Assembly (NCBI GenBank): GCA_046052125.1
Contig: JBJOMY010000003.1
Coordinates: 192,001 to 256,000 of the forward strand
DNA length: 64,000 nt
Direction: 5' to 3'
DNA from: Cyanobacteriota bacterium
GTDB taxonomy: Bacteria > Cyanobacteriota > Cyanobacteriia > PCC-6307 > Cyanobiaceae
Positions within the stretch are counted from its first letter, which is position 1. The number at the start of each line of letters is the position of its first letter. Below the pieces are notes generated by a model that did no database searches, was not told the DNA's origin, and saw only the letters and a list, made by a program, of their open reading frames with translations. Positions 4,764 through 51,713 of the stretch are shown piece by piece. The position numbers and the translations under genes are program-made.

Positions 4764-4823
4764 GGTGTTGAGGGGAGCGCTTGTGGCCCGCTTTTAGCAG
4801 GCCACAAGCGCACTGCCAAGAGA

Positions 4824-4925
4824 TCAGGCGCGGTAGAGGCTCGCGGCCAGACGGACGGCGAGCACGCCAGCGTGGGCAGCCACCACCAGGGCAATCAGCA
4901 CTTCGGCCTGGGTGAGGGACGTCAT
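4824..4925 (-). CDS. psaM: Photosystem I reaction centre subunit XII
   Basis: Hand-translated 33 aa MTSLTQAEVLIALVVAAHAGVLAVRLAASLYRA (below the ORF-track cut-off). Confidence 0.93.
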   Translation of the reverse strand: MTSLTQAEVLIALVVAAHAGVLAVRLAASLYRA

Positions 4926-4975
4926 GGCCTGATTCAACGCAGAAATCCCACCCATTCTTCCCCAGTTCCGCGGCC

Positions 4976-5542: not shown

Positions 5543-6296
5543 GGGCCAGCTGCACAGCTCGCCTGCCCGCATCCAGCGCCAGCACCACACACAGCACTCG
5601 CAGCAGCCACACCAGCCGCGATTCGCTCACCGATTGCAGCCGAGACGCCGACCATTGCGCGGCCACAGCGGCCGTTGCCCCCAGCAGCAGGCCCATGCCC
5701 GGGTGGCCGCGCCCATCGCTCCAAAAGGTGAGTGACGCTGCTGCGGCAGAGGCACAGACCGCGATCGTGCTCAGCCGGATCGCCTGATACACCCGAATTC
5801 CCAGGCCCTGCACCATCAGCGGCACCATCACCAGGCCGCCGCCCACCCCCAACAGTCCGCTCGACCAGCCCGCCACCAGCCCCACGCCGGAGAGCCCCAG
5901 CAGCGGCAGTGGTGGGGCGTCAGCTTCGTTCTGGTCGCTGCGGCGGGGAGAGATCACGCCGGCCAGCACGCCGTACATGGCGGCCTGCAGGGTGAGCAGG
6001 TGCCATCCCTGTAGGACGTTGCCGGCATGGCTGAACACCAGTGACCCTGTGATCGCCCCGGCGGCGATGGCCAGCACCGCCTGCTTGGGCACCAGACCGC
6101 TGCGTAGGTGGGTCCAGCTGCCGGCCAGGGTGGTGGGCAGGATCGCCAGGGTGCTGGTGGCCAGGGCCTGATGGGGTGAGAGTCCCAGGGCCAGCAGCAG
6201 CGGCGAGAAGATCAGGCCGCCGCCGATGCCCAGCAGGCCGGAGAGCAGCCCCGCCAGGATGCCCAGGGGCAGCAGTGGCAGCAGGTCCCAAATCAT
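5535..6296 (-). CDS. Sulfite exporter TauE/SafE family membrane protein
   Basis: Two GLLG(I/V)GGG repeats, highly hydrophobic. Confidence 0.9.
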   Translation of the reverse strand: MIWDLLPLLPLGILAGLLSGLLGIGGGLIFSPLLLALGLSPHQALATSTLAILPTTLAGSWTHLRSGLVPKQAVLAIAAGAITGSLVFSHAGNVLQGWHLLTLQAAMYGVLAGVISPRRSDQNEADAPPLPLLGLSGVGLVAGWSSGLLGVGGGLVMVPLMVQGLGIRVYQAIRLSTIAVCASAAAASLTFWSDGRGHPGMGLLLGATAAVAAQWSASRLQSVSESRLVWLLRVLCVVLALDAGRRAVQLALS

Positions 6297-25460: not shown

Positions 25461-26091
25461 TCAGGGCGAGCACTTCGCCATCGCTCACCGGCTCAAAGCG
25501 CTCATACCAAGCCCCCACCGCCCAGAGGTTGTCCACCTCCGCCAGTGCGATCAGTGCATCGAGCTCCGGTCGCAGTCGGGCTGCCACCTGGCGATCGATC
25601 ACCGGCACCGCCAGCACCAGCCGGCTGGGGTTGGCTTGCCGCAGCGATTGCAAGGCGGCCCGCACCGTGAGCCCCGTGGCCACGCCGTCATCCACCACCA
25701 ACAGGGCGCGATGGCGCAGTGACGCCAACTCCGGGTCGCCGTAGAGGCGCCGTCGTCGCTCGAGCTCGCGGCTCTGCTCGGCCACGATCCGCTCGCGCAG
25801 GGCAGCATTGAGCCCATGGGCGTTGGCCGTGGTGTCGTCCCAGATCAGCACTCCGCCCGGTGCGATCGCTCCCAGGGCCAGCTCTGGTGCCAGTGGGTGC
25901 GCCAGTTTGCGCACGGCCCAGCTCGCCAGCGGCAGCTCAAGGGCGCGCGCCACTTCGGCGGCTACCACAATGCCCCCGCGCGGTAGCCCCAGCACCAGCG
26001 CATCGGGGCTCTTCCGCCATGAGGTCAGTCGTTCGGCGAGGGCGCGGCCGGCTTGGTTGCGGTCACGCCACAGCGCGGTTCCTCGAGCCAT
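25387..26091 (-). CDS. Phosphoribosyltransferase family protein (Rv0571c N-terminal type)
   Basis: RDR..AG..LA, LGLPRGG, VRKL, LVVDDGVATG PRPP motif, AVG.WY..F. Confidence 0.9.
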   Translation of the reverse strand: MARGTALWRDRNQAGRALAERLTSWRKSPDALVLGLPRGGIVVAAEVARALELPLASWAVRKLAHPLAPELALGAIAPGGVLIWDDTTANAHGLNAALRERIVAEQSRELERRRRLYGDPELASLRHRALLVVDDGVATGLTVRAALQSLRQANPSRLVLAVPVIDRQVAARLRPELDALIALAEVDNLWAVGAWYERFEPVSDGEVLALITAGSADPASSGATTHRKERSSRL

Positions 26092-28834
26092 GGCGATGGG
26101 TCCTCCAGAGGGTGCGGAGCTGATCGGCAAGCAGTGGTGCCGGAATGCACAGCAGCAACCACCACCACAACTGTGATGGGATCGGCGCCATCTGGAAGGT
26201 GCGGGCCAGGGGCGGCCAGCCCTGCAGCAGGGCGAAGGCCAGTAGCTCCGTGGCGATGCCGAGCAGCAGCAGGGCGTTGGGGCGTTGCTGGATTCGCCCG
26301 CGGCAGGCCAGGGCCGTGCCCACCTGGGCCGCAACGATTGAGCCCAGGGCCACGGCAGAGGCCTGCTGCTGAACAGCGATCACGGCCGCGGAGGCGTGGT
26401 GGTGCAGCAGATCTGCCGCCAGAGACCGGAGACCCACCAGGTTCACCCCCTCGCGCCACCAGGTGAGCCCGTAGCCGCTCATGGCGAGGACCCCCTCGAT
26501 CAGGCCAAAGAACAGATAGGCCTCCTGGAGCAGCGCGCGATCCAGCAGTGGTTGGTCGCGATGGCGCGGTGGCCGGTTCATCACCTCCGGCTGGGCTGGC
26601 TCGGCCCCCAGGCCCAGGGCCGGCAGCAGATCGGTGCCCAGATCGATCGCCAGGATCTGCAGCACGGTGAGGGCTGCCGGGATTCCCAGCAGCAGCATGG
26701 TGAGGAACGGCGCCACCTCCGCCACGTTCGAGGCGAGGATGTAGAGGATGAAGCGGCGGATGTTGTCGTACACGCCGCGGCCGTGCCGCACCGCCGAGAC
26801 GATCGTGGCGAAGTTGTCGTCCACCAGCACGATGTCGGCTGCTTCGCGGGCCACATCCGTGCCGCTTTTGCCCATGGCGATGCCTACATCAGCGGCCCTC
26901 AGCGCCGGGGCGTCGTTCACGCCATCGCCGGTCACGGCCACCACTTCGCCGAGTGCCCGGTAGGCGTGCACCAGCCGCAGCTTCTGCTCCGGTGCCATGC
27001 GGGCAAACACCAAGCGGGAGCGGTATTTCAGGAGCTGGCGCAGCTGAGCATCACTGAGCCGCTGCAGGTCGCTGCCGTTGATCACCCGCACGGGGTCGTG
27101 GTCGGCATGGGCCGGCGCCTCCAACAGTCCGATCTGCCGCGCGATCGCCTCAGCAGTGAGGCCGTAGTCGCCGGTCACCATCGTGACCTTGATGCCGGCG
27201 CGGTGGCAGGCAGCGATCGCTTTGCTCACGCCGGGCCGCGGCGGATCCACCAGGCCCACCAGGCCCAGCAACACCAGCTGCTGCTCCTCCAACTCCTGCC
27301 GCTGCCCGGGCCTGCAGGCGATCGCCAGCACCCGATACCCCTGGCGGGCCATCACATCGTTGGCCTCACTCACCAGCTGCCGCTCAGCCGGCCCCAGCGG
27401 CACCACCGTGCCGGCGCGCCACCAGTGGCTGCAGCGCTCCAGCAGCTCCAGCGGCGCACCCTTGCTGCCCACCATCCAGCTGCAGGGTTCTGGCCAGCGG
27501 TGATCGCCTTGCCAGTGCAGCAGCACGCTCATCAACCGCCGCTCGGAATCGAAGGGCAGCTCCTGCAGCCGGGGCAGTCGCTTGCGCTCCTGGTCCAGCT
27601 CCAGGCCGGCGCGCTGAGCGCCCTGGAGCAGCGCCGTTTCTGTGGGATCGCCAACCTCAAGGGAGGCGTTGCAGCACAGGGCAGCGATCAACAGCAGCAG
27701 CTGTTGATCGTCTCCCCAGATGCTCTGCAGCGTCATGGCGTTGGCCGTGAGCGTGCCGGTTTTGTCGGTGCAGATCACACTCACACAGCCGAGCGTTTCC
27801 ACCGCCGAAAGCCGCCGCACCAGAGCCCGCTCCCGGGCCATCCTCTTCACCGCCAGCGCCAGCGCCAGGGTGACGGTGGGGAGCAGACCCTCCGGCACAT
27901 TGGCCACGATGATGCCGATCGAGAACACCAGGCTCTCGAGCGGCTTCACGCCGACTAGCAGCACGCCGCCGAGGAAGGCCAGCGCTCCCATGCCAACGGC
28001 GATGCCGGTGATGGTGCGCACGATCCGCCCCACCTGCACCTCCAAGGTGCTGGCACCGCGTTCAACGCCGGCACTGAGATGCGCCACCTGGGCGAACTCC
28101 GTGTCGGATCCAGTGGCGTACACCAGCGCCTGCGCCCGGCCGGCCACCACGGTGGTGCCGGCTGGTAGCAAGTTGGCTGTGTCCGATGGATTGCCCCGCG
28201 GCGGCTGGCTGGTGGCCGTGCGTGCCACCGGCAACGCCTCCCCGGTGAGCACGGCGGCATTGAGCGACAGCTCCACCGCCTCGATCACCCGGCAGTCGGC
28301 CGGCACTTGATCGCCCGCCTCCAGCTCCAGTAAATCCCCCGGCACCAGGGTTTCCACCGGTAGGAGCTGCAGGGAGCCATCGCGCCAGACCCGCACCTGC
28401 CGAGGCAACACGTTGGTGAGGGCCGCGAGGGTGCGTTCGGCCTGAAAGTCCTGCCAGAAGCTGAATACTGCATTGATCAGCACCACGCTCCAGATCGCCC
28501 AGCCGAGTTCGGGTGTGCCGGCGAGAAAGGCCATCGTTCCCGCCACCCACAGCAGCAGAGCCATGAAGTGGGTGAGCTGATCGCTGAAGCGCAGAAGGAG
28601 GGGCCGTCGCCGCTGCGGCGGGAGCTGATTGGCTCCGAATCGCTCCAGCCGGATCGCGGCCTGGGCACTGCTCAAGCCTTGGGCGCTGCTTTCAAGGGCA
28701 CGAAGGGCTGTTGCTTGGTCGAGGCTGCAGATCGGCGGCGAAGCAGTGAGTGGCACAACACCGGTTCCTGGCTGTGGTTGCTGACTAGCGCCTTTGCGGA
28801 GGCCTGTCGCGTCTTCATCGTGAATGGGCTGCAA
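26063..28834 (-). CDS. Cation-transporting P-type ATPase (P2, CtpF-like)
   Basis: TGEA, VANVPEGL, DKTGTLT, KGAP, TGDGVNDAPAL; start uncertain. Confidence 0.95.
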   Translation of the reverse strand: MQPIHDEDATGLRKGASQQPQPGTGVVPLTASPPICSLDQATALRALESSAQGLSSAQAAIRLERFGANQLPPQRRRPLLLRFSDQLTHFMALLLWVAGTMAFLAGTPELGWAIWSVVLINAVFSFWQDFQAERTLAALTNVLPRQVRVWRDGSLQLLPVETLVPGDLLELEAGDQVPADCRVIEAVELSLNAAVLTGEALPVARTATSQPPRGNPSDTANLLPAGTTVVAGRAQALVYATGSDTEFAQVAHLSAGVERGASTLEVQVGRIVRTITGIAVGMGALAFLGGVLLVGVKPLESLVFSIGIIVANVPEGLLPTVTLALALAVKRMARERALVRRLSAVETLGCVSVICTDKTGTLTANAMTLQSIWGDDQQLLLLIAALCCNASLEVGDPTETALLQGAQRAGLELDQERKRLPRLQELPFDSERRLMSVLLHWQGDHRWPEPCSWMVGSKGAPLELLERCSHWWRAGTVVPLGPAERQLVSEANDVMARQGYRVLAIACRPGQRQELEEQQLVLLGLVGLVDPPRPGVSKAIAACHRAGIKVTMVTGDYGLTAEAIARQIGLLEAPAHADHDPVRVINGSDLQRLSDAQLRQLLKYRSRLVFARMAPEQKLRLVHAYRALGEVVAVTGDGVNDAPALRAADVGIAMGKSGTDVAREAADIVLVDDNFATIVSAVRHGRGVYDNIRRFILYILASNVAEVAPFLTMLLLGIPAALTVLQILAIDLGTDLLPALGLGAEPAQPEVMNRPPRHRDQPLLDRALLQEAYLFFGLIEGVLAMSGYGLTWWREGVNLVGLRSLAADLLHHHASAAVIAVQQQASAVALGSIVAAQVGTALACRGRIQQRPNALLLLGIATELLAFALLQGWPPLARTFQMAPIPSQLWWWLLLCIPAPLLADQLRTLWRTHRHGSRNRAVA

Positions 28835-28966
28835 TCAGAGCCGCAAGCGCTGTTGATCCTTGCGGGGTTCTAGAACGCAAGCGTTGGATCCCTAAGACAC
28901 GCACAGGGTTGGCTCAGTGCCTTGGCGTTGCTGCAACTGAAAAGAACGCACTGGGGCAACGGGCGC

Positions 28967-30064
28967 ATGCAGCGCTACGGCCTGGTTGCCGCCATGGTGT
29001 TGGTGGGTGGCGTATTGGTGCGCTTGGTGCACGGTGTTGTTGCTCCGGCGCAAGTGGATGACGCGCGCCTGGTCGTGCCATCCAGCCCCTTGGTGCCGGC
29101 TACGGAGCTTGTGGTAGCCCAGGAGCATGGCCGCCTGGGTCATCTCTATGTGCGTGAAGGGGCTGCAGTCGCTCCCGGACAGGCCCTGTTTTCGTTGAAG
29201 CGCGATCTCGAGATCGAACAGGATCTGGTGGATCGAGGGTTGGCGCGCGACATCACAGAAGTGAATGCTCAGATTCGCGAGTCGCGCCGGGCTCTTGATT
29301 CCTTGGCTGAGCGTTTGGTGCTCACTCGACCTGTGGCGAATCCGCAGTTTGAGCAGCAGATCGCCCTCGCTAGGCAGCGTTTGGATCGGCGCATCACGCT
29401 CTGGCTATCCGGTGGCCTGAGTCGCGATTTTGTGGATGAAGGTGAGGAGCGTCTGCTGCGTTTGAAGCGCGATGCCGCTCAGTGGCGGGAGGATCGCCAG
29501 AAGTTGGTGAGCTTGCAGCAGCTCATTCGGCAGCAGAACGCCCGCTTGGACGGGTTGTTGCAGCAGCAGACACAACTGCGCAGCAGCGATCTGCAACGGC
29601 GCGCCGAGGCGCGCGTGCATCCACCACTTCAATTCAACGAGCAGAGTCATCTCGCTTACGCCACTTATCGCGCTCCTGCTCGCGGCACGGTGCTGCGGCT
29701 GCTGAAGCAGCCCGGCGAGGCTGTGAAACCTCGCGAAGCGGTAGCGATTGTGCAGAAGGATCTGCCGCCTCCGGTGGTGGAGGCCAGGGTTCCGTGGTCG
29801 GGTCAGTGGTTCTTGATGCCTGATCAGGAAGCAAGAGTGGAGATCCCCTCGCTCCGCCAGCGCTACGACGCCCAAGCCGTTGCCGTTGATCATGGTGGAG
29901 ATGGTTGGCAGCGCGTGCGGCTGGCGTTGAAAGGGGTTCCAGCCACCGAGATGAGGCGTTTGCTGGCCTTGCCTGGAGAGCCGGTGCGCTTGACCATTCC
30001 CCAGGAGCATCTACTGGTGCGCTGGTTGCGTACACGGGAGCTGAAGGCCTGGGCCTCACCGTGA
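28967..30064 (+). CDS. HlyD/membrane-fusion-protein family periplasmic adaptor
   Basis: N-terminal TM, split lipoyl-like halves (V.EG..V..GQ.LF; APA.G.V...K.PGE.V) flanking a long coiled coil. Confidence 0.8.
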   Translation: MQRYGLVAAMVLVGGVLVRLVHGVVAPAQVDDARLVVPSSPLVPATELVVAQEHGRLGHLYVREGAAVAPGQALFSLKRDLEIEQDLVDRGLARDITEVNAQIRESRRALDSLAERLVLTRPVANPQFEQQIALARQRLDRRITLWLSGGLSRDFVDEGEERLLRLKRDAAQWREDRQKLVSLQQLIRQQNARLDGLLQQQTQLRSSDLQRRAEARVHPPLQFNEQSHLAYATYRAPARGTVLRLLKQPGEAVKPREAVAIVQKDLPPPVVEARVPWSGQWFLMPDQEARVEIPSLRQRYDAQAVAVDHGGDGWQRVRLALKGVPATEMRRLLALPGEPVRLTIPQEHLLVRWLRTRELKAWASP

Positions 30065-30726
30065 TGCTTGCCCTGGCGTTCGTGGTGATTCCCCATCTGC
30101 TCTGGGCCCAGCGGCTGGTTGCTGATCTGCGACCGGAACACAACAGCTATGGGCGCAATCCCTCTCTGGTGGTGTGGCGTGGTGTGGATGGAGCGCCGAT
30201 CAGCCGCAACCGCAGTGATTGCTCCAGCTTCATCACCGCGTTATGGAGCCGTGCCTACGGCTATGGCTCAGATCAGATGCGCCAGTGGCTTGGGGTTGCG
30301 GCACCGCGAGCACGCGACTATCACGACGCCATCGTGAAGGGCAATCGGTTTCAACGGATTGAGCGGATTGTCGATCTGCAGTCAGGTGATCTCCTGGCCA
30401 CGCGCTATCAGCGCAGCCGCTCTGATGCCACCGGGCACGTGATGTTGGCGGCGTCGCGGCCGACGGCTGTGGGTGTTTGTTCTGGGGTTTTGTGCGTGTT
30501 TCGGCTGCAGGTGATTGATTCATCCCGCAGCGGTCATGGACCACTCGATACCCGGCAAGGCAAGGCCGGCGTTGGCGAGGGTGTGATTCGGCTGCAGACC
30601 ACTCGAGATGGTCGTTTGCAGGGGTACCGCTGGAGTGAACGAGGCAGCTCCCGCTGGCGCTTGGCACCAGAGGAATCGCTGGTGGTGGGGCGGTTTATTG
30701 GGCCAGTGTCCAGAGCTGGTGGGTGA
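30064..30726 (+). CDS. Exported NlpC/P60-like (papain-fold) cysteine hydrolase
   Basis: Signal-like N-terminus, SDCSSF catalytic Cys, LQSGDLL, TGHVM His; TGATG coupling to the upstream gene. Confidence 0.65.
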   Translation: MLALAFVVIPHLLWAQRLVADLRPEHNSYGRNPSLVVWRGVDGAPISRNRSDCSSFITALWSRAYGYGSDQMRQWLGVAAPRARDYHDAIVKGNRFQRIERIVDLQSGDLLATRYQRSRSDATGHVMLAASRPTAVGVCSGVLCVFRLQVIDSSRSGHGPLDTRQGKAGVGEGVIRLQTTRDGRLQGYRWSERGSSRWRLAPEESLVVGRFIGPVSRAGG

Positions 30727-31687
30727 TGAACAGTGCGCCCATGGCAGAGCTGATCATCACCAGCATCCAGGGGAGGACCTGTTTTCGCCCGTACAGCACC
30801 ACATCGTTGGCGTAGGAGAGGATCGCGATCACCACGAGGATGTGGTTGCCCTGAAAGGGCAATGCGTCCATCCCGAGCTGAATGAACAGCACCTCCACGC
30901 TCCACACAAAGGCAATGCTCAGGAGCAGCGCCACCACATAGCGATTGAGCCCCACGATCAGGCTGCGCGCACTGATGGCGTGAACCAGTTGCTCCACGCT
31001 CAGGCATCCCACCACAAACATGGCGGCACTGAGGGGTTCCAACAGCAGGGCGGCGGCCATTGGGGCAACCACGTAACCACCCGGGCGCTGGTGGGTGCGC
31101 TTGTAGATCGCCATGCCCACCAGGAGTGCGATGAGGAACTGAATCGACTTGGCATGCAGCTGAATGCTGCTCACATGCCTGTAGTACTGGTTGAGTTCGT
31201 TGAAGTCGATTCGAAAGAGAGCGCTGCCGATCACCACAATGGTGAGGGTGAAGAGCAGGGTGCCTGTGGTCACCACCAGCATTCCCTTGCTCACCGGCCG
31301 CCAGCTTTGGCGATGCAGGTTGAAGGCGATCACAGCTGGTAAGAGGCTGCCAGTGATGCCATCGAGGCTTCCCGCAATCACGCCGAGCTGAAGGGCAGCG
31401 AGGGCCAGGGGGGGGCTGATGAGTAAGGACAGCACGCCAAGGATGTACATCGGCCGCCGCCGTTGATGCTGGAGCCGCTCAAACCAACGCTGATAGATCC
31501 ACTGGATCAGGTAGGCCATTGCAATCACGGCCAGGCACCAGAGCGGTGAGACCAGAAATAGGTTGGTGAGGATCCCGGGAACAATGATTCCGCCGGGGGT
31601 GATGCCATTGCGCTGCTGCCAGAACAAGGCCAGCAGGCTCCCGATCGCCAGGCTGAAACGCTGAATCTCCGGTGTGATCAGCTCCAT
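30695..31687 (-). CDS. pgsC: Poly-gamma-glutamate synthase subunit PgsC/CapC, tandem-duplicated
   Basis: GITPGGIIVPG and RR..Y..G CapC motifs; second copy RPGGYVVAP..LIVGLNRY; directly downstream of pgsB. Confidence 0.85.
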   Translation of the reverse strand: MELITPEIQRFSLAIGSLLALFWQQRNGITPGGIIVPGILTNLFLVSPLWCLAVIAMAYLIQWIYQRWFERLQHQRRRPMYILGVLSLLISPPLALAALQLGVIAGSLDGITGSLLPAVIAFNLHRQSWRPVSKGMLVVTTGTLLFTLTIVVIGSALFRIDFNELNQYYRHVSSIQLHAKSIQFLIALLVGMAIYKRTHQRPGGYVVAPMAAALLLEPLSAAMFVVGCLSVEQLVHAISARSLIVGLNRYVVALLLSIAFVWSVEVLFIQLGMDALPFQGNHILVVIAILSYANDVVLYGRKQVLPWMLVMISSAMGALFITHQLWTLAQ

Positions 31688-32874
31688 GCCAGTTGTTGGT
31701 TGATGGCATCCATCAAGCGGCTGGCTTGGGGGGTATGGATGTTCACAGCGCCAATCAGCACGGCTGAGCTCTCTCGATCGATCACGCCGCTGATGGTGTT
31801 GAGCAGGGTTGCTCCGCTGGCGTCCCTGAATCGGCTTCCGTTACCGCAATGAATCAGCCGGCAGGGCTTGCGCGTTGCAATCTCGCTCACTTCTTTTTCG
31901 TAGTCACCAAAGGTGAACACGGTGCTGAAGTTCAGTTGCAGTGCGAGTTCGGTGAACAGATGAACGCGGCTTTGCCGGTCGTGGCGATTGTTGAGAATCA
32001 CCATTCTCTGGGCCTCTGGATGCATGGTGAAGATCCGCTCGCACAGGCTCACGAAGCTTTCGCGATCATTCACGGCGAACAGATTGGCCCAGTGAATCGT
32101 TTTTCTCTGGTGGGTCAGCGTGCCGAGCCTTAATGCCCCTGGATCCGGTTGTGCCGCCTGCATGGCGGCCAGGGCACGCTGCCTTGAGAGGCCGATCTGA
32201 TCGGCCACTGCGTAGCCGATCGCCACGTTGTCTTCGATGGCGAAATGGTTGAACGCTTTTAAGCTCTCCGGGGCAATGGTGCTGCCATTTACCACGATCA
32301 ACTGCGTGCCGTGTTGTTCTGCTTGCTGCTGCAGGATGGCCTGCAATGTTGGGTTCTGCTCGGCCGTGATCAGGATCCCATGATTGGGGATCGCTCGCGC
32401 TAAAGAGCGGGCGATCTCTTCAAGGGTTTCACCGAGGTAGTCGGTGTGGTCGAGCCGGATATTGGTGATCACGCCAATGCTCGACTGCATCACCTTCTGC
32501 TCCAGCCATTCCCCATAGGCCGGATTGACGGCCATGCATTCCACGACCGCTGCTTCGGCGCCGTTGTCACTGAACTGCCGGAGGATGCCCACCTGCTCGT
32601 TCACGTTGGGCATCCCTTTGCGTTGGACGCTCTGTTCGGTCCCATCAGGCAAAAGGATCCGAGCAGCACTGCCTGTTGTTTTGGCAAAGGTTCGATACCC
32701 CTGCTCTCGAAAGATGGCGGCGAGATAGCGCGTTGTTGTTGACTTGCCCCGGATTCCATTGACATGAACGCGCCAGCGAATCGACGAGCGGGCCATCTCA
32801 AACCGGCGATAGCGATCCAGGGTTTGATGGAGGAAAGCTGTAACAAGCAGCAGATACAGCAAATAGCCCGTCAA
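31678..32874 (-). CDS. pgsB: Poly-gamma-glutamate synthase PgsB/CapB
   Basis: VHVNGIRGKSTTTR, AKTTGS, NVNEQ, VECMAV, TNIRLDH, PDPGAL, FAVND, NNRHDR. Confidence 0.95.
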   Translation of the reverse strand: MTGYLLYLLLVTAFLHQTLDRYRRFEMARSSIRWRVHVNGIRGKSTTTRYLAAIFREQGYRTFAKTTGSAARILLPDGTEQSVQRKGMPNVNEQVGILRQFSDNGAEAAVVECMAVNPAYGEWLEQKVMQSSIGVITNIRLDHTDYLGETLEEIARSLARAIPNHGILITAEQNPTLQAILQQQAEQHGTQLIVVNGSTIAPESLKAFNHFAIEDNVAIGYAVADQIGLSRQRALAAMQAAQPDPGALRLGTLTHQRKTIHWANLFAVNDRESFVSLCERIFTMHPEAQRMVILNNRHDRQSRVHLFTELALQLNFSTVFTFGDYEKEVSEIATRKPCRLIHCGNGSRFRDASGATLLNTISGVIDRESSAVLIGAVNIHTPQASRLMDAINQQLAWS

Positions 32875-33052
32875 CGCGACGATGGTCGGATGTGATGGGT
32901 ATTGTTGATTTCCAGTGCGGCCTAAATGTTGTTGTCATGGTGATTTGCCGGCTGATCGCTGTGGATCTGCTGCGGGTTCCAGTGGATCCGTTGTTTGGCT
33001 GCCCCTGTTCTTGTCGAGCCCTTTAAGGCTGAGCTGACTTGACGGCTGATGG

Positions 33053-35110
33053 GTGTTGCGCTGCCTGGTTGCGGTTCTGGTGGTCACGCTGCCTTTAACA
33101 GCCTGTGGCGTTCGGCGTGGCGTGGTCAGTGGCCGCGTGCTTGATCTCAATGGCAAGCCGATTGCAGCCGTTGAGATTCGCCACGGCCAGACCCGCGCCT
33201 GGAGTGGCTCAGATGGGCGCTTTCGCTTTGAGTCGCTCGCCCAGCCGGGGTGGATTGAGGCCTCTCGTGCCGGCTATGCCTCCGCCCTGCGTCCTGTGCA
33301 GCCGGGGCTTCCCACGCTGGTCCGTTTGAGCCCGGCAGACAGCGACACCGTGGTGCTCCATGCCGTTGGCGATGTGATGGCCGGTCGTCGCTTTTTCACC
33401 GGTGATCCGGCCACGCAGCACGCACCTCAGCTGCTGCCGGGCGGTGGCGTTGAGGCGCACCAGCGATTGCTGCAGGCGGTGCAGCCGTTGCTGGCTCGCG
33501 CCGATCTCAGCTTGGTGAATCTTGAAAGTCCGCTGCTTCCTGATCCCGTAGCGGAGCGAGCGGGGATTCGCGCAGCGACGTTTCATTCCACCAAGGACTA
33601 TGTGTTCGCCAGCTCGATGGCGCTCCCGGAGGCGTTGCGACGTGTGGGTGTGGACCTGGTGGGTCTGGCCAATAACCACGTTTATGACGCCTTCTCTGAT
33701 GGCTTGCGCTCCACCCTTGAAACCCTCCATTTGGCAGGGTTCCGGCCTGGTGAGGGGATGTTCGGGGCGGGCTCAACGGCTGATCAGGCCTGGCATCCAG
33801 CGCGGTGGCCCGCCAAAGGGCAGACGATCTCTGTTCTGGGATGCACCACCATTCATGGCAGTCAGCATCCGATCAGCTACATCGCGTCGGATGAGCAACA
33901 GAAGGCTGGAGCCGCCCTCTGCGAGGCCCATCGGCTCACGGCAGCCGTTCGGGCCGCCCAACGGTTGGGTCCGGTGGTGGTGGTTCTCCACGGAGGCAAT
34001 GAATACCAGAGCGATCCCACTCCGCCGATTGAGCAGATGGTGGAGGTGGCGCGACGCGCAGGCGCCAGGCTGGTGCTCAATCACCACTCCCATGTGCTGG
34101 GTGGACTGCGCTGGGATGGCCGCAGCCTGGTGGCCCTGGGTCTGGGCAATCTTCTGTTTGATCAGACGCTCTGGAGCACCTTTCCCTCTCAGCTGCTCGA
34201 GGTGCAGTTGCGCCGGGGTGTCGTGCAGCGGGTGATCGTCTACCCACTGCTGCTGCATCGCTACCGCCCCTATCCCGCTGCTGGAGCTCTGGCTGACTGG
34301 ATCCTGCGGGGGATCGCTGCCAAGAGCTCTGCCCCCTGGGTGATTCAAGGGGGTGTGATGGAGCTGGATCTCTCAGGGAATGCTGATCGGCTAAAGCGTT
34401 GGCTGCCGGTGTCTGCCGGGACGGCCACATCCCGGCTTTGGCCCTTGCCCGCCAACGCCACGGTGTGTGGCTGGCGAGGGGGGGCTCCGCTGGAGCAGGG
34501 CCGTTCGTTGCTGGGGGTCGGCGACTTAGAAGATCAACTGGTGGGTGCGAGTCCTGGCACAGGTGCGCTCTGGGCTCTGTTTCACAACGACCAGCGCTTG
34601 GAGCGCGGTGCTGCACGAACCGGTGCGTATGGGGTGCGATTGAGGCGTTCGTCGTTGCATCGTCAACCGGTGCTGCTCAGGCCCCTGCATCGCATTGCCG
34701 TGCAACCGGGTGAGCGCCTCACGTTTTTGGCATGGATGCGGGGGGGGCAGGGGAGCCGCCCGCGGCTTCAGATCAGCTGGTACGGCGCCTGGCGGGGGCC
34801 ATCGGTGGCGCGGGTGACGCGTTTGATCACCCTGCCATCGTCGAACCGTTGGCAGCCGGTTCGCCTCGATCTGCAGGTTCCAGACCATGCCGTGGCGGTG
34901 AGCCCTGCCATTGCGCTTGATCCACCTGGCTTGGGACAGCAGTGGCTGGATCTCGATGATCTGGATCTCATTCGCTGGCAGCAGCCCGGTGCGATGCAGG
35001 CTCAGCCGGTGGATTGGCTGCGCAGTCGTGGTGCTGGGAGCGTGTGCTTGAGCCGGGCGCACTGGCGGGGTGAGACTCCGCAGCCGCTGGCGCTGCGGCC
35101 TTGGCCCTGA
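33053..35110 (+). CDS. capA: CapA/PgsA family lipoprotein with N-terminal beta-sandwich and C-terminal CBM-like domain
   Basis: Lipobox LTAC; GRVLD..G.PI; VGDVMAGR, VNLESP, LANNHVYD, LHGGNEY, NHHSHVL, LGNLLFDQ. Confidence 0.88.
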   Translation: MLRCLVAVLVVTLPLTACGVRRGVVSGRVLDLNGKPIAAVEIRHGQTRAWSGSDGRFRFESLAQPGWIEASRAGYASALRPVQPGLPTLVRLSPADSDTVVLHAVGDVMAGRRFFTGDPATQHAPQLLPGGGVEAHQRLLQAVQPLLARADLSLVNLESPLLPDPVAERAGIRAATFHSTKDYVFASSMALPEALRRVGVDLVGLANNHVYDAFSDGLRSTLETLHLAGFRPGEGMFGAGSTADQAWHPARWPAKGQTISVLGCTTIHGSQHPISYIASDEQQKAGAALCEAHRLTAAVRAAQRLGPVVVVLHGGNEYQSDPTPPIEQMVEVARRAGARLVLNHHSHVLGGLRWDGRSLVALGLGNLLFDQTLWSTFPSQLLEVQLRRGVVQRVIVYPLLLHRYRPYPAAGALADWILRGIAAKSSAPWVIQGGVMELDLSGNADRLKRWLPVSAGTATSRLWPLPANATVCGWRGGAPLEQGRSLLGVGDLEDQLVGASPGTGALWALFHNDQRLERGAARTGAYGVRLRRSSLHRQPVLLRPLHRIAVQPGERLTFLAWMRGGQGSRPRLQISWYGAWRGPSVARVTRLITLPSSNRWQPVRLDLQVPDHAVAVSPAIALDPPGLGQQWLDLDDLDLIRWQQPGAMQAQPVDWLRSRGAGSVCLSRAHWRGETPQPLALRPWP

Positions 35111-35399
35111 GGGCCTGCTCACGCAACCGTTGTTTTGCCGCCTCCAGCACCTGGCGCTGCAGCGGATCCAGCTTGCGGCCGGCCCGGTTGATGTAGAGGC
35201 AGAGCATCGCCATCGCACTGGCGTAGGCGCTGCGCTTGCGGCTGCTGCTGCGCTGGGCTGAGCGCAGCAGTGAGGCGGCGATCTGCTCGGGATCACTCCA
35301 GGTGAACACGCCGGCATCGAGATCGAGCGCCGGCGGGCGCAGGGCCACTTGGGCCGACCAACGCCGGGGAGTCGATCCGGGTTTGCGTGCGCCCCTCAT
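34968..35399 (-). CDS. DUF3175 family protein
   Basis: WSAQV..ALDL..GVFT..DP..IA.SL..SA..S..RK, SAM.ML..YINRAG; 3' end overlaps capA. Confidence 0.8.
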   Translation of the reverse strand: MRGARKPGSTPRRWSAQVALRPPALDLDAGVFTWSDPEQIAASLLRSAQRSSSRKRSAYASAMAMLCLYINRAGRKLDPLQRQVLEAAKQRLREQALRAKAAAPAAAESHPASAPGSSTRSQHHDCAANPPAEPASHRAAASE

Positions 35400-35544
35400 G
35401 TGATCAAGCTGCTGGCGCCGCTCAGCTTTGGGGTGGCATGCAGCGGCCTTACGGCGCTGCAGCGTTGAAGTCACCTCAGATGTACGGCGGCGGACCACCA
35501 GAGGTTGTGATTGCCGATTGGGTATGGCGAGTCTTTGTGGTGCC

Positions 35545-36744
35545 ATGCCCGTTCCCGCCAGTCTGGCCGCGATCGTCCAGGCCGCTGATGTGCAATTCAA
35601 TGGCGAGCGGCCCTGGGATCTGCAGGTGCACAATCCGCGCCTCTATGGGGCGCTGCTGCGCCACGGCTCCCTGGCACTGGGCAATGGCTATGTACGCGGT
35701 GATTGGGATTGCCAACAGCTGGATGAGTTGATCTGCCGGCTGCTGCGCAGCGATGGCAATCGGCCGCTCACGCTGCGTTCGCGTCTGGTGGATCTGGGCC
35801 GAATCCTGCGGGATCAGCTCACCAACCCCCAGGGATTGCATCGCGCCTTTCTGGTGGGGCGGCGTCACTACGACATCGATCCACGCGTGTATGCCGCGAT
35901 GCTGGATCCGCAGATGGTGTACAGCTGCGGCTACTGGCGCCACGCAGGCAGCCTCAGCGAAGCGCAGGATCACAAGCTGCGGTTGATCTGCGAAAAGCTG
36001 CAGCTGCGCCCCGGCATGCGCCTGCTGGATGTGGGCTGCGGCTGGGGCTCTCTGGCCGCCTATGCATGCCGTCACTACGGCGTGGAGGTGGTGGGGATCA
36101 CCGTGTCTGCGCAGCAGGCCAGCTGGATCGGTGAGCATCTGGCGCATCTGCCCATTCGGGTGGAAGTGTGCGACTACCGCCAGTTGCCGGCGCGGGATCC
36201 CGGCTACTTCGATCGCATCGCCTCGGTGGGCATGTTTGAGCATGTGGGCCGCCGCAATGACGGCACCTTCTTCCGCACGTTGCAGCGCTTGTTGCATCCT
36301 GATGGTCTGGTGTTGCTGCACACGATCGGGACGGCCCGCAGCACGCCTCGCACCGATCCCTGGATTGATCGCTACATCTTTCCGGGAGGGCGATTGCCCT
36401 CGGCCTGTCAGCTCTCTCGCGGGCTGGAAGCGCAGTTTCTGATTGAAGACTGGGAAAACTTCGGCCCTGACTACGACCGCACCTTGCTGGCCTGGTGGCA
36501 GAACTTTGAAGAGGCTTGGCCGGCCCTGGAGCACGACAGCCGGCCTGAGTTTTTCCGCTTCTGGCGCTATTACCTGCTCAGCTGTGCGGGCTTTTTTCGC
36601 TCCCGCCAGGGGCAGCTCTGGCAGGTGGTGTTGAGCCGGCCGGAGCGCTCTGCCTCCTATCAATCCTGGCGGCCGGCGCGTGTGGATCAGCCCACATTGG
36701 CGCTGCATGACGAAGCGATCCAAGGGCAACCTTGCTCAATGTGA
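35545..36744 (+). CDS. cfa: Cyclopropane-fatty-acyl-phospholipid synthase
   Basis: HYDI, MVYSCGYW, LDVGCGWG, SVGMFEHVG, WIDRYIFPGG, YYLLSCAG. Confidence 0.93.
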   Translation: MPVPASLAAIVQAADVQFNGERPWDLQVHNPRLYGALLRHGSLALGNGYVRGDWDCQQLDELICRLLRSDGNRPLTLRSRLVDLGRILRDQLTNPQGLHRAFLVGRRHYDIDPRVYAAMLDPQMVYSCGYWRHAGSLSEAQDHKLRLICEKLQLRPGMRLLDVGCGWGSLAAYACRHYGVEVVGITVSAQQASWIGEHLAHLPIRVEVCDYRQLPARDPGYFDRIASVGMFEHVGRRNDGTFFRTLQRLLHPDGLVLLHTIGTARSTPRTDPWIDRYIFPGGRLPSACQLSRGLEAQFLIEDWENFGPDYDRTLLAWWQNFEEAWPALEHDSRPEFFRFWRYYLLSCAGFFRSRQGQLWQVVLSRPERSASYQSWRPARVDQPTLALHDEAIQGQPCSM

Positions 36745-36796
36745 GTGCGGATTCTGGGAATCACCGGAGGATTGAGCGCCATCACGTTCCGCGTCC

Positions 36797-37636
36797 ATGA
36801 GTGATGCCTTTGGCGACTATCTGCGCAACATTGGCCGGATTCCGTTGTTAACAGCTCAGGAGGAAGTGCATCTCGGCACGATCGTGAAAGATTGGATGGA
36901 AAGCGATGCGCCATCCCCTGCCCTGCAACGCCGAGGTCGCCGTGCCCTGCAACGCATCGTGACGGCCAATTTGCGCCTGGTGGTGACTGTGGCCCTGCGC
37001 TACATCCGCCGGCTCAAGCATCTCGCCCATGACCCGATGGATCTCGTGCAGGCCGGCAACCTGGGCCTGCTGCGCGCCGCAGAGAAGTACGACCCCACTC
37101 GCGGCTACAAGTTTTCCACCTACGGCTACTGGTGGATTCGCCAATCGATCAATCGCTACCTGCAGGAGCACAGCGGCAGCATTCGCATCCCTGTCAACCT
37201 GGTGAGCCTTGCTAATCGGGCGGATTCGCTTCAGAGCCTGCGCAGTCAGCCCTTGAGTGTGGATCAGCTGGCTGATGCCCTGGGCGAGTCGCCGGAGCGA
37301 TTGTTGTATGCCATGGCGATTCAGCATCGCAGCAGCACCGTGTCGCTCGATCAGCAACTCTCCGGCAGTGATGGCGACATGACCCTGCTCGATACCGTGA
37401 CCGACGATCATCAGCCGATCATTCACGATGATTACCGCTGGATGCACAGCCAGCTCCAGCACCTCTCAACGCCGGAGCTGATGGTGATCCAATTGCGCTA
37501 CGGCGAAGATAAGCACCGCTCTTTCGCAGAGGTGGCTCGCTTGGTGGGCCGCAGCAAGGATCAGGTGCAGCGTTTAGAGCGTCACGCTCTCACCAAGTTG
37601 CGCAGGCATCTTGCACCTGCGCTCTATCCGCAGTGA
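36797..37636 (+). CDS. RpoD-family (group 2-like) sigma-70 factor
   Basis: Region 1.2 YLRNIGRIPLLT, ANLRLVV, KYDPTRGYKFSTY..WWIRQ, C-terminal HTH. Confidence 0.93.
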   Translation: MSDAFGDYLRNIGRIPLLTAQEEVHLGTIVKDWMESDAPSPALQRRGRRALQRIVTANLRLVVTVALRYIRRLKHLAHDPMDLVQAGNLGLLRAAEKYDPTRGYKFSTYGYWWIRQSINRYLQEHSGSIRIPVNLVSLANRADSLQSLRSQPLSVDQLADALGESPERLLYAMAIQHRSSTVSLDQQLSGSDGDMTLLDTVTDDHQPIIHDDYRWMHSQLQHLSTPELMVIQLRYGEDKHRSFAEVARLVGRSKDQVQRLERHALTKLRRHLAPALYPQ

Positions 37637-48167: not shown

Positions 48168-49439
48168 TCAAGCGCCGCTGAGTAGGCGTAGCTTGGTGAA
48201 GAGAAAGCCGAGAACAGTTGTCTGGCGAGTGATGATCTCTGCCTGCACATCCATGCCATGCCTTAAAGAGCAAGTGCGGTTTGCAGATCGCAGCTCTGTT
48301 GTTGAAGGTTTGAGTGAGATCTGGAAAAGTCCTGCTCCGGTAGGCTGGCTCGATTGACCCTGAGCTGCATCGTTTTGTAGGGTGTCGGCAGAGATATTGA
48401 CCACTTTCGCTTTGAGAACACCGTAGTCTGGATAGGGGCATCCAGTGATGCGTAGGTAAGCGTCCTGGCTTGATCTGATGTTGCCGATGTCTCGGCTGGG
48501 GATGCGCACTTGAATCATTTGGGCGGCATCCTTTGGTGCAATCTTGGCAAGAATCTCACCTGCTCTGATCACCTGCTGAGCGTGGCGCATGCCGCTCACC
48601 AACACAGTACCGGCTGTGGGCGCTTTGATCGTGCTATTGATTAGTGCTCTGTTCACCTCCGCGAGTCGCGCGCGCGTGGATTCTAGTAATTTATTTAACT
48701 CTCGATTCTGGTTGGATGTCTTTCCGCGGTCTTGCCTCATTCCTGCGAGCTGAGCGGTTCCCCGCGCACGCTGTTCTTGCATGGCCTGGCGTGCTTTCGC
48801 CAACTCATTCGATGCCAGTTGATACTGTGCCTTCTTCTCATCCACAACACTGGCTGAAACAGCACCAGTGGTGAGCAGGCTTTGATAACGCTGCAGCTCT
48901 GTCTGCCTGAAGTGCAGGGTGGCACTGGCGTTATCAACGTCTCGAGAAGCGGATACGAGTTGGGCGCGGAGGAGTTCTGATGTCGCTGCACTCTGCTGTA
49001 TCAAATCGTTGGCCTGACCGATGCTGCTCTGTTGCTGTGCGATCGATTCATGCAATTCACTTTCTAATTTCTTCTTTTCATTTTCGAGTTGTCGCCGATC
49101 CAGTGCTGCCAGGGCTTGCCCCTTCCTTACCTCTTGATTCTCTTTAATCCATACGGCTGCCAAGCTCCCATCCAGTTGACTTTGGACAACCGTGTTCTCA
49201 CCGTAGGGCCGAACAACCCCAGCAGCACGAACGGTTTCGCGCCATGGCCAGATCGCTAGGCCAATCAGTCCGGCAGTTGCTGTGATGAGCGCATTGCGTC
49301 CTAACGAGTGACTCCAGCGTCCCAGTGATGGTAAAAAGTCGTCTGTGGCGACCAGCATGATCGCCATATCCTGATCAGCGCGTGCTTCAGGTGCGCTGGG
49401 TTTGTTTGATTGTTGTTGAAGATCGAGATTGCTCATCAT
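48168..49439 (-). CDS. HlyD family type I secretion membrane fusion protein
   Basis: TM, VRAAGVVRP, V...ENQ.V.KGQ, IKAP.AG, PYPDYG.L, GM.V.AEI. Confidence 0.93.
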   Translation of the reverse strand: MMSNLDLQQQSNKPSAPEARADQDMAIMLVATDDFLPSLGRWSHSLGRNALITATAGLIGLAIWPWRETVRAAGVVRPYGENTVVQSQLDGSLAAVWIKENQEVRKGQALAALDRRQLENEKKKLESELHESIAQQQSSIGQANDLIQQSAATSELLRAQLVSASRDVDNASATLHFRQTELQRYQSLLTTGAVSASVVDEKKAQYQLASNELAKARQAMQEQRARGTAQLAGMRQDRGKTSNQNRELNKLLESTRARLAEVNRALINSTIKAPTAGTVLVSGMRHAQQVIRAGEILAKIAPKDAAQMIQVRIPSRDIGNIRSSQDAYLRITGCPYPDYGVLKAKVVNISADTLQNDAAQGQSSQPTGAGLFQISLKPSTTELRSANRTCSLRHGMDVQAEIITRQTTVLGFLFTKLRLLSGA

Positions 49440-51667
49440 CAGCTTGCCGATAAGTAAGGGGAAACAAGTAGGCTTTCTTGTAGAGCACTTGGTTGGTCTT
49501 GCTGTTTCACCTTCCCTTGATCGATATAGATGATCCAATCAGCACGAAGGATGACGGAGGGTCTGTGGCTCACCATGATGGTTGTTTTCCCTTTTCGATG
49601 TGTGAGCAGCTGATTCATCAGGCGCTGTTCAAGCACTGGATCCAGTGCGGAGGTTGATTCGTCTAGGATCACCACAGGTGGGTCGTTGATCAAAGCCCGA
49701 GCCAGGGCTAATCGTTGCCGTTGCCCTCCTGAAAGATTGGCTCCAAACTCGCCAAGAACTGTTCCATAGCCATCGGGTAGCTCTCGGATAAAATCATCAG
49801 CCAATGCAAGCCTGCACGCTTCTACAATCTCTGGAAAGCTAATGGCAGGATGGCTAAATACGAAATTCTCGTAGATGCTCCGATTGAAAAAGTGTGAGTC
49901 TTGAGGCACCAAGACAACTTGCCTTCGCAGGCATTCGAGGCTGAGGTCTCTTGAGCTGAAGGAACCGTAGTGAATGGTTCCTTGTTCCGGTGGATAGAAG
50001 CCAGCGATCAGCTTGCTGATGCTGCTTTTGCCACAACCCGACTGACCGATCAGAGCTGTTGTTAAACCACCTGGGATCTCGACACTGAATCCTTCGAGTA
50101 GTGCGCGACGGCCAGGGTAATGCCAGGTGATGTTCTCACATCTGATCGCAGCCTGAGGGCTAATCTGTGCGTAATGACGATTCTTGCTTAGTGCATCTTC
50201 CGGTTCTCTCTCCATCACCTCTGATAACCGCCGTAGGACAACGCCAGCTGTAATGGCTTCCTGGGAGATGGCGCTCAGTCCCGTCAGGAAGGCTAAAACG
50301 TTAGCCCCCATCCCGTTGAAGGCAAGAAGTTGCCCGATGCTCAGGTCATTGTTGATGACAAAGCTACTGCCATACCAAAGCAAGGCAATTGAGCCAAGAC
50401 CTCCTAGTAATCCAGTGGCTGTACTTTCGTTGAGGCGGAGTTGTGTGCCTGCCCAGCTGAGCCGTGCCAACCTGCCAAAGTTTCGCTGGTACTCCTGCCA
50501 GGCTTGTGGTGTTGCCTCTGTTGTTTTGAGTACCGTCGCTGCTCGAAACACTTCCACCAGATAACCCTGGTTGTCTGCTGCCCCGACCAGTAGTTGCTTT
50601 GTCTTCGTCTGAATAAGTGGTAAAAAGCAGAGATTGCATACCACTACAGCTGTGTAGCACGCGACCGCGGCGATAGCCAAAGGTGCTGAGTAGGCGATCA
50701 TCCAGACCAAAGAAATTGCTGCGATGCATAGCTGGCTCGGTAGGCCGGTAACGACGGCGGTCAACAGCTCGTTGATCTTCTGAATGTCACTGATACGACT
50801 AACAACTTCACCGCTTCGATGGCTTTCAAAGTAGTTGATTGGTAGGCGAAATAAGCGTTGGCCATAATGCAGAATCATCTGCAGCTGCAGTTTCTGGCCA
50901 AAGTGCCCCACCATCTGTCCCTGCACCCAGCCCAGTCCATGGCGGAGTGCAGTGAGCAGCATGATTCCAATGCTCAGCGCCGCGAGCATATGAGTATCTC
51001 CTCTGACCAGCACATCGTCGGTCAGGATCTGCATGAGTACAGGCATGCCTAGGGCGAGGCTGCCGATCACAACATTGAGCAGTAAGGCCTGAGTTAATAG
51101 GCCTTTAAAGGGCTTCACGAACTGGGTGAAGATCCAGATCCCTGGCGTGCCTTTGTCTTCCTCATTCTGAGTAAATCTGGCGGGATCTGGTTCCAGTAAT
51201 AGAAGCACCCCATTCTGCCAATGGTGGAGGAACTCGCGATCACTGAGTTCACGAAGTCCAACTGCAGGGTCAGCTACAACAAGCAGCTGATTCTGATTGC
51301 GGCCATGTAAGACGACCCAGTGGTTGCCGTTCCAATGGCAAATGACAGGGAGTGGTACTTCGTTAATCGATTCAAGTATCGATTCGTCAGCCTTTGCTGC
51401 ACGAGCTATGAGCCCCAGCTGCTCAGCTCCCCGTTTCAGTCCAAGGAGCGTGGTGCCGTTGGCCATAGTGCCGACGGCTTCTCGCACGTTGCCAATGCTC
51501 ACGGCACGACCGTGTTGCGCGCAGATCGTTGCAATGCAGGCTGCTCCGCAGTCCTCTTCGCTGAATTGTCGAACGCAGGCAAATTGCCGTTGCTGATGCG
51601 TCAGGAATTGGCGAAGGCCGTTATGCAAGGTCTTGATTCTGTCCTTGCTGAACATCTGAAGGGGCAT
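49439..51667 (-). CDS. C39 peptidase-containing ABC transporter (PCAT, PteB/SunT-type)
   Basis: Q..EEDCGAAC Cys, HWVV His, DPA; Walker A GQSGCGKS, LSGGQRQR, ILDESTS; start may be 51694 or 51655. Confidence 0.95.
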   Translation of the reverse strand: MPLQMFSKDRIKTLHNGLRQFLTHQQRQFACVRQFSEEDCGAACIATICAQHGRAVSIGNVREAVGTMANGTTLLGLKRGAEQLGLIARAAKADESILESINEVPLPVICHWNGNHWVVLHGRNQNQLLVVADPAVGLRELSDREFLHHWQNGVLLLLEPDPARFTQNEEDKGTPGIWIFTQFVKPFKGLLTQALLLNVVIGSLALGMPVLMQILTDDVLVRGDTHMLAALSIGIMLLTALRHGLGWVQGQMVGHFGQKLQLQMILHYGQRLFRLPINYFESHRSGEVVSRISDIQKINELLTAVVTGLPSQLCIAAISLVWMIAYSAPLAIAAVACYTAVVVCNLCFLPLIQTKTKQLLVGAADNQGYLVEVFRAATVLKTTEATPQAWQEYQRNFGRLARLSWAGTQLRLNESTATGLLGGLGSIALLWYGSSFVINNDLSIGQLLAFNGMGANVLAFLTGLSAISQEAITAGVVLRRLSEVMEREPEDALSKNRHYAQISPQAAIRCENITWHYPGRRALLEGFSVEIPGGLTTALIGQSGCGKSSISKLIAGFYPPEQGTIHYGSFSSRDLSLECLRRQVVLVPQDSHFFNRSIYENFVFSHPAISFPEIVEACRLALADDFIRELPDGYGTVLGEFGANLSGGQRQRLALARALINDPPVVILDESTSALDPVLEQRLMNQLLTHRKGKTTIMVSHRPSVILRADWIIYIDQGKVKQQDQPSALQESLLVSPYLSAS

Positions 51668-51713
51668 GGGCTCTGCCGAAGTGCTCTTGCGCAAAGGCCA
51701 ACAGTGGCCATTG

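Follow-up and report, generated by a model that had tools for sequence, protein, structure and literature searches.

Poly-gamma-glutamate (PGA) has been described in Bacillus and in a handful of others. According to the accessible text of one account, the triad PgsB-PgsC-CapA is the defining set of the known producers; the endo-type gamma-glutamyl amidase PgdS is thought to free PGA in B. subtilis, and CapD anchors PGA to peptidoglycan in Bacillus anthracis (PMC3815933). The same text lists Fusobacterium nucleatum as the sole Gram-negative producer, with a pgs operon that has no pgdS, and the accessible part does not address how PGA would cross a second membrane (PMC3815933). Here we describe a five-gene island of a picocyanobacterium (Cyanobacteriota, family Cyanobiaceae) that combines this triad with an HlyD-like adaptor, also called a membrane fusion protein (MFP), and with a candidate cysteine amidase of the NlpC/P60 fold, which we call the P60-like protein. 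The island lies in a window of 64,000 nucleotides (positions 192,001 to 256,000 of contig JBJOMY010000003.1 in assembly GCA_046052125.1), and positions in this genome are given as positions in that window. We think that the five genes probably form one functional polymer system, and their content suggests that its product is most likely PGA.

For a polymer synthase that is linked to an adaptor, the closest described systems make glucans, and Maeda et al. 2018 is reportedly the primary paper behind the XcsA-XcsB-TolC model for cellulose. As far as the accessible text of its source goes, the cyanobacterial cellulose proposal consists of the synthase XcsA, the HlyD-like XcsB, an unlinked TolC, and, in some species, an endoglucanase gene in the operon (PMC12430437). 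For the rhizobial mixed-linkage glucan, the available portion of the source states that BgsA and BgsB genetically require TolC (PMC13438883).

The genes for the synthase, the adaptor, and the P60-like protein strictly co-occur. Across 301 genomes of the family, including this one, separate searches for PgsB (TIGR04012), for the P60-like profile, and for the adaptor profile (E <= 1e-40) identified the same 14 genomes, with zero discordant cases. The 14 genomes fall in 5 of 64 genera; we give no statistic for the co-occurrence because related genomes are not independent. A first-pass annotation of this DNA, made from the sequence alone, had proposed beforehand that co-conservation of the MFP and NlpC/P60 genes with pgsBC would be a test of its reading, and the 14 shared genomes are the outcome. 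The neighborhood survey that it suggested also bore it out, as the five genes stay linked despite a rearrangement and a change of neighbors. The full set, in the window's order, is present in 8 of the 52 loci that were found with the P60-like profile; these eight loci are picocyanobacterial by title or context, and the genes that flank the set differ among them, with at least 4 kinds of surroundings. The genes are arranged otherwise in genus g32 (capA, adaptor, and P60-like gene on one strand, divergent from pgsB and pgsC2), where the set nonetheless stays linked. Furthermore, the identities of the five proteins to those of the window fall in parallel from locus to locus: locus L007 has 81% for the adaptor, 77% for the P60-like protein, 81% for PgsC2 (the window's PgsC, which is a double protein), 74% for PgsB, and 77% for CapA, while the corresponding values in L011 are 35%, 45%, 48%, 55%, and 46%. 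Two loci that are titled Asaia bogorensis and Chitinophaga pinensis (L008, on a contig of the same-genus genome G007, and L012) also carry the picocyanobacterial five-gene block; these titles look like mislabelled bins because the gene content and the flanks match cyanobacterial loci.

The island is carried by a few freshwater picocyanobacteria. Within the genus, PgsB was found in 3 of the 37 genomes searched, and among 400 other genomes of the phylum we found just one broken fragment. This fragment (L074, G628:C142:8689-8988), in a cyanobacterium of another family, covers profile positions 19-118 of PgsB with four in-frame stops and looks like the remnant of a lost locus.

We also scanned metagenomes with the PgsC2 alignment, which gave 24 loci, 6 of which end too early to judge. 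The adaptor was present in 16 of the 18 judgeable loci (in 15 the profile matched it, and in 1 it is a fragment at the end of a contig); L081 and L092 are the two without it. In L081, transposase-like open reading frames (ORFs) follow pgsC2 (4719-5569), where related loci have the P60-like and adaptor genes, so L081 looks like an island that is being broken up. Seven distant loci, whose PgsC2 is 38-47% identical to ours, contain pgsB followed by pgsC2, mostly then a lipoprotein-like ORF of 347 residues, and finally an adaptor of about 590-610 residues, all on the same strand (L089:8725-13913 and L090:8725-13919; also L087, L094, L095, L097, and L098). The 347-residue ORF has no match in Pfam. 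Gamma_PGA_hydro (PF05908), the phage-type PGA hydrolase, is a weak lead for this ORF (Atlas score 0.81, rank 7) and no more than that, as the score is within the range of shuffled proteins.

PgsB (31678-32874, minus strand, 398 residues) belongs to the PgsB/CapB amide ligases of the Mur-ligase/FolC superfamily, which are ATP-dependent by family. It scores 319.5 bits against TIGR04012, which is about 97 bits above NCBI's equivalog cut-off of 222.7, and the match covers profile positions 6-373 of 380. PgsB also matches Mur_ligase_M (PF08245) at 49.8 bits and contains the P-loop GIRGKST. FolC is its only solved structural relative (E 2.7e-6); beyond FolC, we found no solved structures that are related to PgsB, PgsC, or CapA. 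From membership in this family, we infer that the polymer would be PGA.

PgsC2 (30695-31687, minus strand) has 330 residues, as compared to 119 and 132 positions in the family profiles, and is a fused tandem duplicate of PgsC/CapC. It matches Pfam's CapC (PF14102) in two stretches with 76.4 bits (cut-off 27), and the C-terminal half by itself scores 38.5 bits against the same cut-off. Both halves contain the motif PGG(I/Y)xV(A)P, which is invariant in 18 sequences. When the halves were compared to each other by BLAST, the similarity was not significant (E 0.16-0.49); we identified the duplication from the Pfam matches to each half and from the repeated motif. About 8-9 hydrophobic segments are predicted. 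All 99 of the PgsC2 homologues returned carry PF14102, and most of them have 326-341 residues. Named homologues are few and cyanobacterial (Synechococcus, Cyanobacteriota, and Microcoleaceae metagenome-assembled genomes [MAGs]) and are already auto-annotated as PgsC/CapC.

CapA (33053-35110, plus strand, 685 residues) is a secreted protein or lipoprotein of the CapA/PgsA type, with PGA_cap (PF09587) at residues 102-371 (150.2 bits; cut-off 27). The protein begins with a hydrophobic segment and the lipobox L-T-A-C (residues 15-18), and judging from this it is probably lipid-anchored in this genome. Among 10 orthologues of CapA, the lipobox is canonical in 6 and only approximate (a near-lipobox) in two, and the remaining two show just a plain signal-like segment. 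On either side of PGA_cap are two extra domains: a stretch resembling CarboxypepD_reg at residues 25-85, which scores 28.9 bits and is below the cut-off of 32.3, and a C-terminal region of about 310 residues (the last 314) with no match in Pfam. For the C-terminal region, CBM_4_9 was an Atlas lead (0.81), which we take as no more than a lead, its score being in the range of shuffled proteins.

The adaptor gene is on the plus strand at 28922-30064 (380 residues); an alternative in-frame ATG lies 15 codons downstream, at 28967. The match to HlyD_3 is barely over the cut-off (24.5 versus 22.2 bits). A hydrophobic, transmembrane segment is at residues 22-40, and the AlphaFold2 (AF2) model (pLDDT 89.6) predicts an N-terminal transmembrane helix, a long alpha-hairpin, a lipoyl domain, and a beta-barrel; helices at 96-135, 143-162, and 168-232 give the hairpin arms of up to about 65 residues. 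When we searched for similar structures with Foldseek, the model had 73 matches at E <= 0.001, including EmrA (4.6e-15) and, to E 1e-9, MacA, MexA, AcrA, and ZneB. The family is very small: we searched 1.84 billion representatives exhaustively and found 37 relatives at E <= 0.001, of which 10 reach E <= 1e-30, and the next-best paralogue in its own genome scores 70 bits, compared with 320 for the adaptor itself.

Relatives of the adaptor have a cytoplasmic N-domain, and the window's protein is a short form without it. In 5 of the 14 genomes, including this one, the match to the adaptor profile begins at position 148-151 of 564, versus position 7-30 in the remaining 9. An N-terminal PilZ domain is present in 8 of 28 aligned relatives, so that PilZ, a transmembrane segment, and the MFP are in one chain. 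PilZ is absent from the window's adaptor, and the long picocyanobacterial forms have no match to it at E <= 0.01; in the adaptor of the distant locus L090 (12087-13919) the match is borderline (22.3 bits, cut-off 22.5). Alg44 is the PilZ-adaptor co-polymerase of alginate synthesis, and the PilZ-bearing relatives, including the one behind pgsB-pgsC2 in L090, resemble it, whereas the window's adaptor is short and has no cytoplasmic domain.

The locus contains no ABC, RND, or MFS transporter next to the adaptor, and the genome's four OEP/TolC-type genes are all outside the locus. In contrast, the window's other HlyD gene (48168-49538, 456 residues) is beside its own exporter, an ABC protein of 751 residues with a C39 peptidase. 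This pair (48168-51694, minus strand) sits in a stretch of low G+C content (52-55% at 48-54 kb) and appears to form an export pair of the leader-peptide (bacteriocin) type on a second island.

The P60-like gene (30064-30726, plus strand, 220 residues) encodes a protein with the papain-like NlpC/P60 fold. In structure, it comes closest to the gamma-D-Glu-diamino-acid endopeptidases that act on peptidoglycan. Two residues, C53 and H125, do not vary across 30 sequences, and a block of the form IDSSRSGHGPxDTR is largely invariant in 30 relatives. We know of no such block in ordinary P60 domains. Just 9 of 111 homologues have a precomputed match to PF00877, and when the P60-like profile was compared to the sequences in PDB, the only hit was cytochrome c (E 2.1), which is a chance match. 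Leaders vary across the family: in L009 and L010 they are signal-like, with about 20-25 residues, and in L011-L013 they are shorter and hydrophobic. One locus from a MAG of Methylococcaceae (L018:2863-10919) has a P60-like protein (237 residues) adjoining a CapA-like protein (860 residues) that is built of the same three parts as the window's CapA. Alongside is a protein of 1386 residues whose C-terminal half resembles Mur ligases and PgsB (25% identity) and whose N-terminal half belongs to no family; there is no CapC gene. This locus may encode another kind of amide-polymer module, with accessory parts in common with our island.

The five genes span about 6.2 kb. The stop codon of the adaptor and the start codon of the P60-like gene overlap (TGATG), which couples the two genes translationally; pgsB and pgsC2 share a 10-nt overlap; and the 3' ends of the P60-like gene and pgsC2 overlap by 32 nt, so the two transcription units are convergent. 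capA is divergent from pgsB, and the 178 bp between them (32875-33052) presumably hold both promoters. We found no match to the sigma-70 consensus in this intergenic region. It does contain an 18-nt near-repeat (D4), with two copies (32939-32956 and 33033-33050) that are 83% alike and 94 nt apart; D4 could be an operator or could be due to chance.

All five ORFs of the first-pass annotation do exist where it placed them, and PgsB, CapC, PGA_cap, and HlyD_3 are each above their cut-offs. Its coupled pair of an adaptor and an NlpC/P60-like protein also stands, given the TGATG overlap and the fold and invariant Cys and His of the P60-like protein. Other details needed correction: its start for the adaptor, at 28967, is the internal ATG of the longer ORF; the pgsC that it listed is present, is twice the usual length, and is a tandem duplicate; and its divergent lipoprotein CapA has the LTAC lipobox, along with two extra domains that it did not mention.

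How does this locus compare with the described systems? Like PgsBCA(E)/CapBCA(E) of B. subtilis, B. anthracis, and F. nucleatum, it encodes PgsB, a partner of the CapC family, and an extracytoplasmic PGA_cap protein, and pgsB and pgsC are adjacent and overlap. Unlike those systems, it has a fused PgsC and an added adaptor gene, and it has no pgsE or capD; also, capA is divergent and outside the operon, and its product has a signal peptide with a lipobox and the two extra domains. The P60-like protein has in common with PgdS the NlpC/P60 fold, the Cys-His pair, and a gene that is linked to the synthase, and it would be expected to cleave gamma-glutamyl amides as PgdS does, to go by the accessible account of that enzyme (PMC3815933). 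It differs from PgdS in being a single domain of 220 residues that does not match PF00877, with about 90 extra residues and the invariant IDSSRSGHG. It appears to belong to a separate family, and its kinship with PgdS is supported as far as the shared fold goes. As in XcsA-XcsB-TolC (with the endoglucanase XcsC) and BgsA-BgsB-TolC, the synthase is linked to an HlyD-like adaptor, there is no transporter, and TolC is elsewhere in the genome; as with XcsC, a gene for a candidate polymer-cutting enzyme is in the same cluster. Unlike the glucans of XcsAB and BgsAB, which are made by glycosyltransferases, the cargo here would be a polyamide, the product of an ATP-dependent ligase; the adaptor also belongs to a family of its own, and the system is known from its genes alone.

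We propose that the island encodes a synthase-dependent system for a glutamate-based polyamide, fitted to an envelope with two membranes. PgsB would link glutamate units at the cytoplasmic face, at the cost of ATP; the double PgsC2 would be its inner-membrane partner and conduit; and the secreted CapA would complete the synthase on the periplasmic side. The adaptor, with its transmembrane anchor and long alpha-hairpin, would take the place that BcsB or XcsB/BgsB has in glucan synthases and would probably couple the synthase to an unlinked TolC-type channel, which would give the chain a path across the periplasm and through the outer membrane. The P60-like enzyme would most likely cut gamma-glutamyl amide bonds and so release or size the chain, which would match the role of PgdS in Bacillus subtilis and of endoglucanases in cellulose systems. 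What the analysis shows is that PgsB, PgsC, and CapA belong to their families, that PgsC is duplicated in tandem, that the adaptor and the P60-like protein have the folds described, and that the genes strictly co-occur and are linked; by homology, we infer the identity of the polymer, the route via TolC, and the hydrolase activity. The route via an unlinked TolC has somewhat less than an even chance of being right, and we would say the same of hydrolysis of PGA by the P60-like enzyme.

Several observations weigh against this proposal. The glutamate polymer of this island is so far predicted from genes alone, and nothing in the sequence of PgsB fixes its substrate or the length of its product. 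PgsC2 scores well below the NCBIfam equivalog cut-off for PgsC (TIGR04011; 39.8 versus 96.45 bits). The locus does not encode an outer-membrane component, PgsE, or CapD, and the GGT gene is on another contig, as in many bacteria. The first-pass annotation had suggested that the system may be a complete one for a diderm: a diderm PGA system is supported at the genomic level, but its completeness is not, as the locus lacks a gene for an outer-membrane channel. In metagenomic locus L092, capA, pgsB, and pgsC2 are followed by 9 kb of unrelated genes, with no adaptor there. Also, none of the seven distant pgsB-pgsC2 loci has a P60-like gene; since these loci do keep the adaptor, the link between adaptor and synthase is older and wider than the link to the P60-like gene.

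Most of the other difficulties concern the P60-like protein. It has no match in Pfam or NCBIfam at E <= 0.01, including PF00877, and no match by Foldseek at E <= 0.001. It lacks a clear signal peptide in this genome; because only about 9 residues precede the folded domain, its export is uncertain. The family is not specific to PGA outside of the picocyanobacteria: by tblastn, 43 of the 52 loci lack pgsB, pgsC, capA, and the adaptor (21 of these 43 have full 10-kb flanks). These loci are from Planctomycetota, Acidobacteriota, Burkholderiales, Methylococcaceae, and other groups, and we found no conserved neighborhood around the relatives in other phyla. PgsB was not found anywhere in 5 searched genomes with a stand-alone P60-like gene. 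Since the family exists elsewhere without pgsB, its ancestral substrate may be peptidoglycan.

The missing outer-membrane gene would also fit a product that is kept in the periplasm or on the peptidoglycan, where it could for instance buffer cations or form a hydrated layer. In that case, the P60-like protein would serve as a transpeptidase, anchor the product, or make local openings in the wall, and the adaptor would be only a scaffold for the synthase. Such a role would suit an NlpC/P60 enzyme, as these form an acyl-enzyme on Cys, and it would suit the endopeptidases that are nearest in structure and the family's wide distribution without pgsB; in B. anthracis, CapD does fix PGA to peptidoglycan, according to the accessible text (PMC3815933). 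However, the hairpin in the adaptor's model is long, as in EmrA and MacA, which dock to TolC; the PilZ-bearing relatives resemble the co-polymerases of secreted polymers; and the distant loci maintain an adaptor without any P60-like gene. We therefore consider a retained product to be unlikely. It is less likely still that the system makes something other than PGA (for instance, a polymer of mixed amino acids, or short chains of glutamyl units attached to a different acceptor) and that the accessory genes act on that product. PgsC2 is divergent as well as duplicated, CapA has its extra domains, and the Methylococcaceae locus indicates that CapA-like and P60-like parts combine with other ligases; but PgsB exceeds its equivalog cut-off by a wide margin over nearly the full profile, and the triad defines the known PGA producers (PMC3815933, accessible text).

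The patchy spread of the island, the transposase-like ORFs at the place of the adaptor and P60-like genes in one locus, and the lack of a promoter consensus raise the question of whether it is silent or decaying cargo, intact yet unused and on its way to being lost. This seems very unlikely: here, and in the 11 related loci that we examined in full, none of the five frames is interrupted, and the proteins diverge to 30-58% identity with their motifs kept, which implies purifying selection. Contigs from RNA libraries also cover parts of all five genes. These metatranscriptome contigs are from 4 runs in 4 studies, with lengths of 151-464 nt, at least 95% identity, and depths of 2-8; they give neither strand nor level, and the uncovered parts are uninformative. 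Being short and shallow, they could stem from carry-over of DNA, which tells against the proposal. Finally, the adaptor and the P60-like protein might be an unrelated envelope module that happens to be next to pgsBC-capA. Their genes do form a separate transcription unit that converges on pgsC2, and relatives of the P60-like protein stand alone elsewhere. But with three separate searches giving zero discordant genomes among 301, with linkage that survives the rearrangement in g32, and with relatives of the adaptor in operons with pgsB-pgsC2 in the distant loci, a chance neighborhood is hardly credible. The reading we prefer is still that of one system that makes and exports a glutamate-based polymer.

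The island is flanked by the gene for a P-type cation ATPase (26063-28834, minus strand) and by a gene for a CMAS-type methyltransferase (about 35506-36744, plus strand). In two complete congeners without the island, these genes are neighbors, 129 bp apart in G027 and 373 bp apart in G008, which implies that the island arose by a clean insertion or was removed by a clean deletion. We did not count the ATPase, the methyltransferase, or a sigma factor as parts of the system, because in other contexts they do not accompany the island. The G+C content is 60-61% across 30-34 kb, as compared to 64-69% in the flanking 2-kb bins. Direct or inverted repeats at the flanks, as expected of a mobile element, were not found (all repeats are short and imperfect), nor were any matches to Rfam within 28000-37000. 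Between capA and the CMAS gene is a DUF3175 gene (34968-35633, minus strand, 101 bits), which overlaps the end of capA with its 3' part; we did not find it at the corresponding site in the two congeners that bear the island (G007 and G021).

A full-text search of the literature, which most subscription journals were outside the reach of, did not find a published cyanobacterial PGA system or an adaptor in a PGA locus. A 2017 review, which devotes a section to phylogenetic relationships, uses none of the words cyanobacter*, Gram-negative, and Fusobacterium. The synthase core is already known, as are the gene names, by auto-annotation in cyanobacterial MAGs. What appears to be new, from the sequences, is the fused double PgsC, the dedicated adaptor family (with PilZ in relatives), and the new NlpC/P60 family.

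A broader proposal, which we offer tentatively and would bet against by a little, is that polyamides are a new class of cargo for secretion via adaptor and TolC, with PgsB-PgsC2-CapA plugged directly into a dedicated adaptor that is gated by cyclic di-GMP (c-di-GMP) via PilZ in distant cyanobacterial relatives. Some freshwater picocyanobacteria would then be the first phototrophs known to secrete PGA, the new NlpC/P60 family would be the cognate PGA cutter, and PgsC would be a dimer or pseudodimer in all PGA synthases. As a natural PgsC-PgsC fusion, PgsC2 constrains the stoichiometry of the synthase complex. The gene content also suggests an answer to how PGA crosses a second membrane, namely a dedicated adaptor as a constant companion of the synthase. 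A light-driven producer of PGA would be of interest for biotechnology. In lakes, if the polymer is made, the picocyanobacteria with this patchily distributed trait would have an anionic exopolymer that is rich in nitrogen, which could affect the formation of microcolonies and the binding of metals, and it could bear on defence against grazers and phages and on the release of dissolved organic nitrogen.

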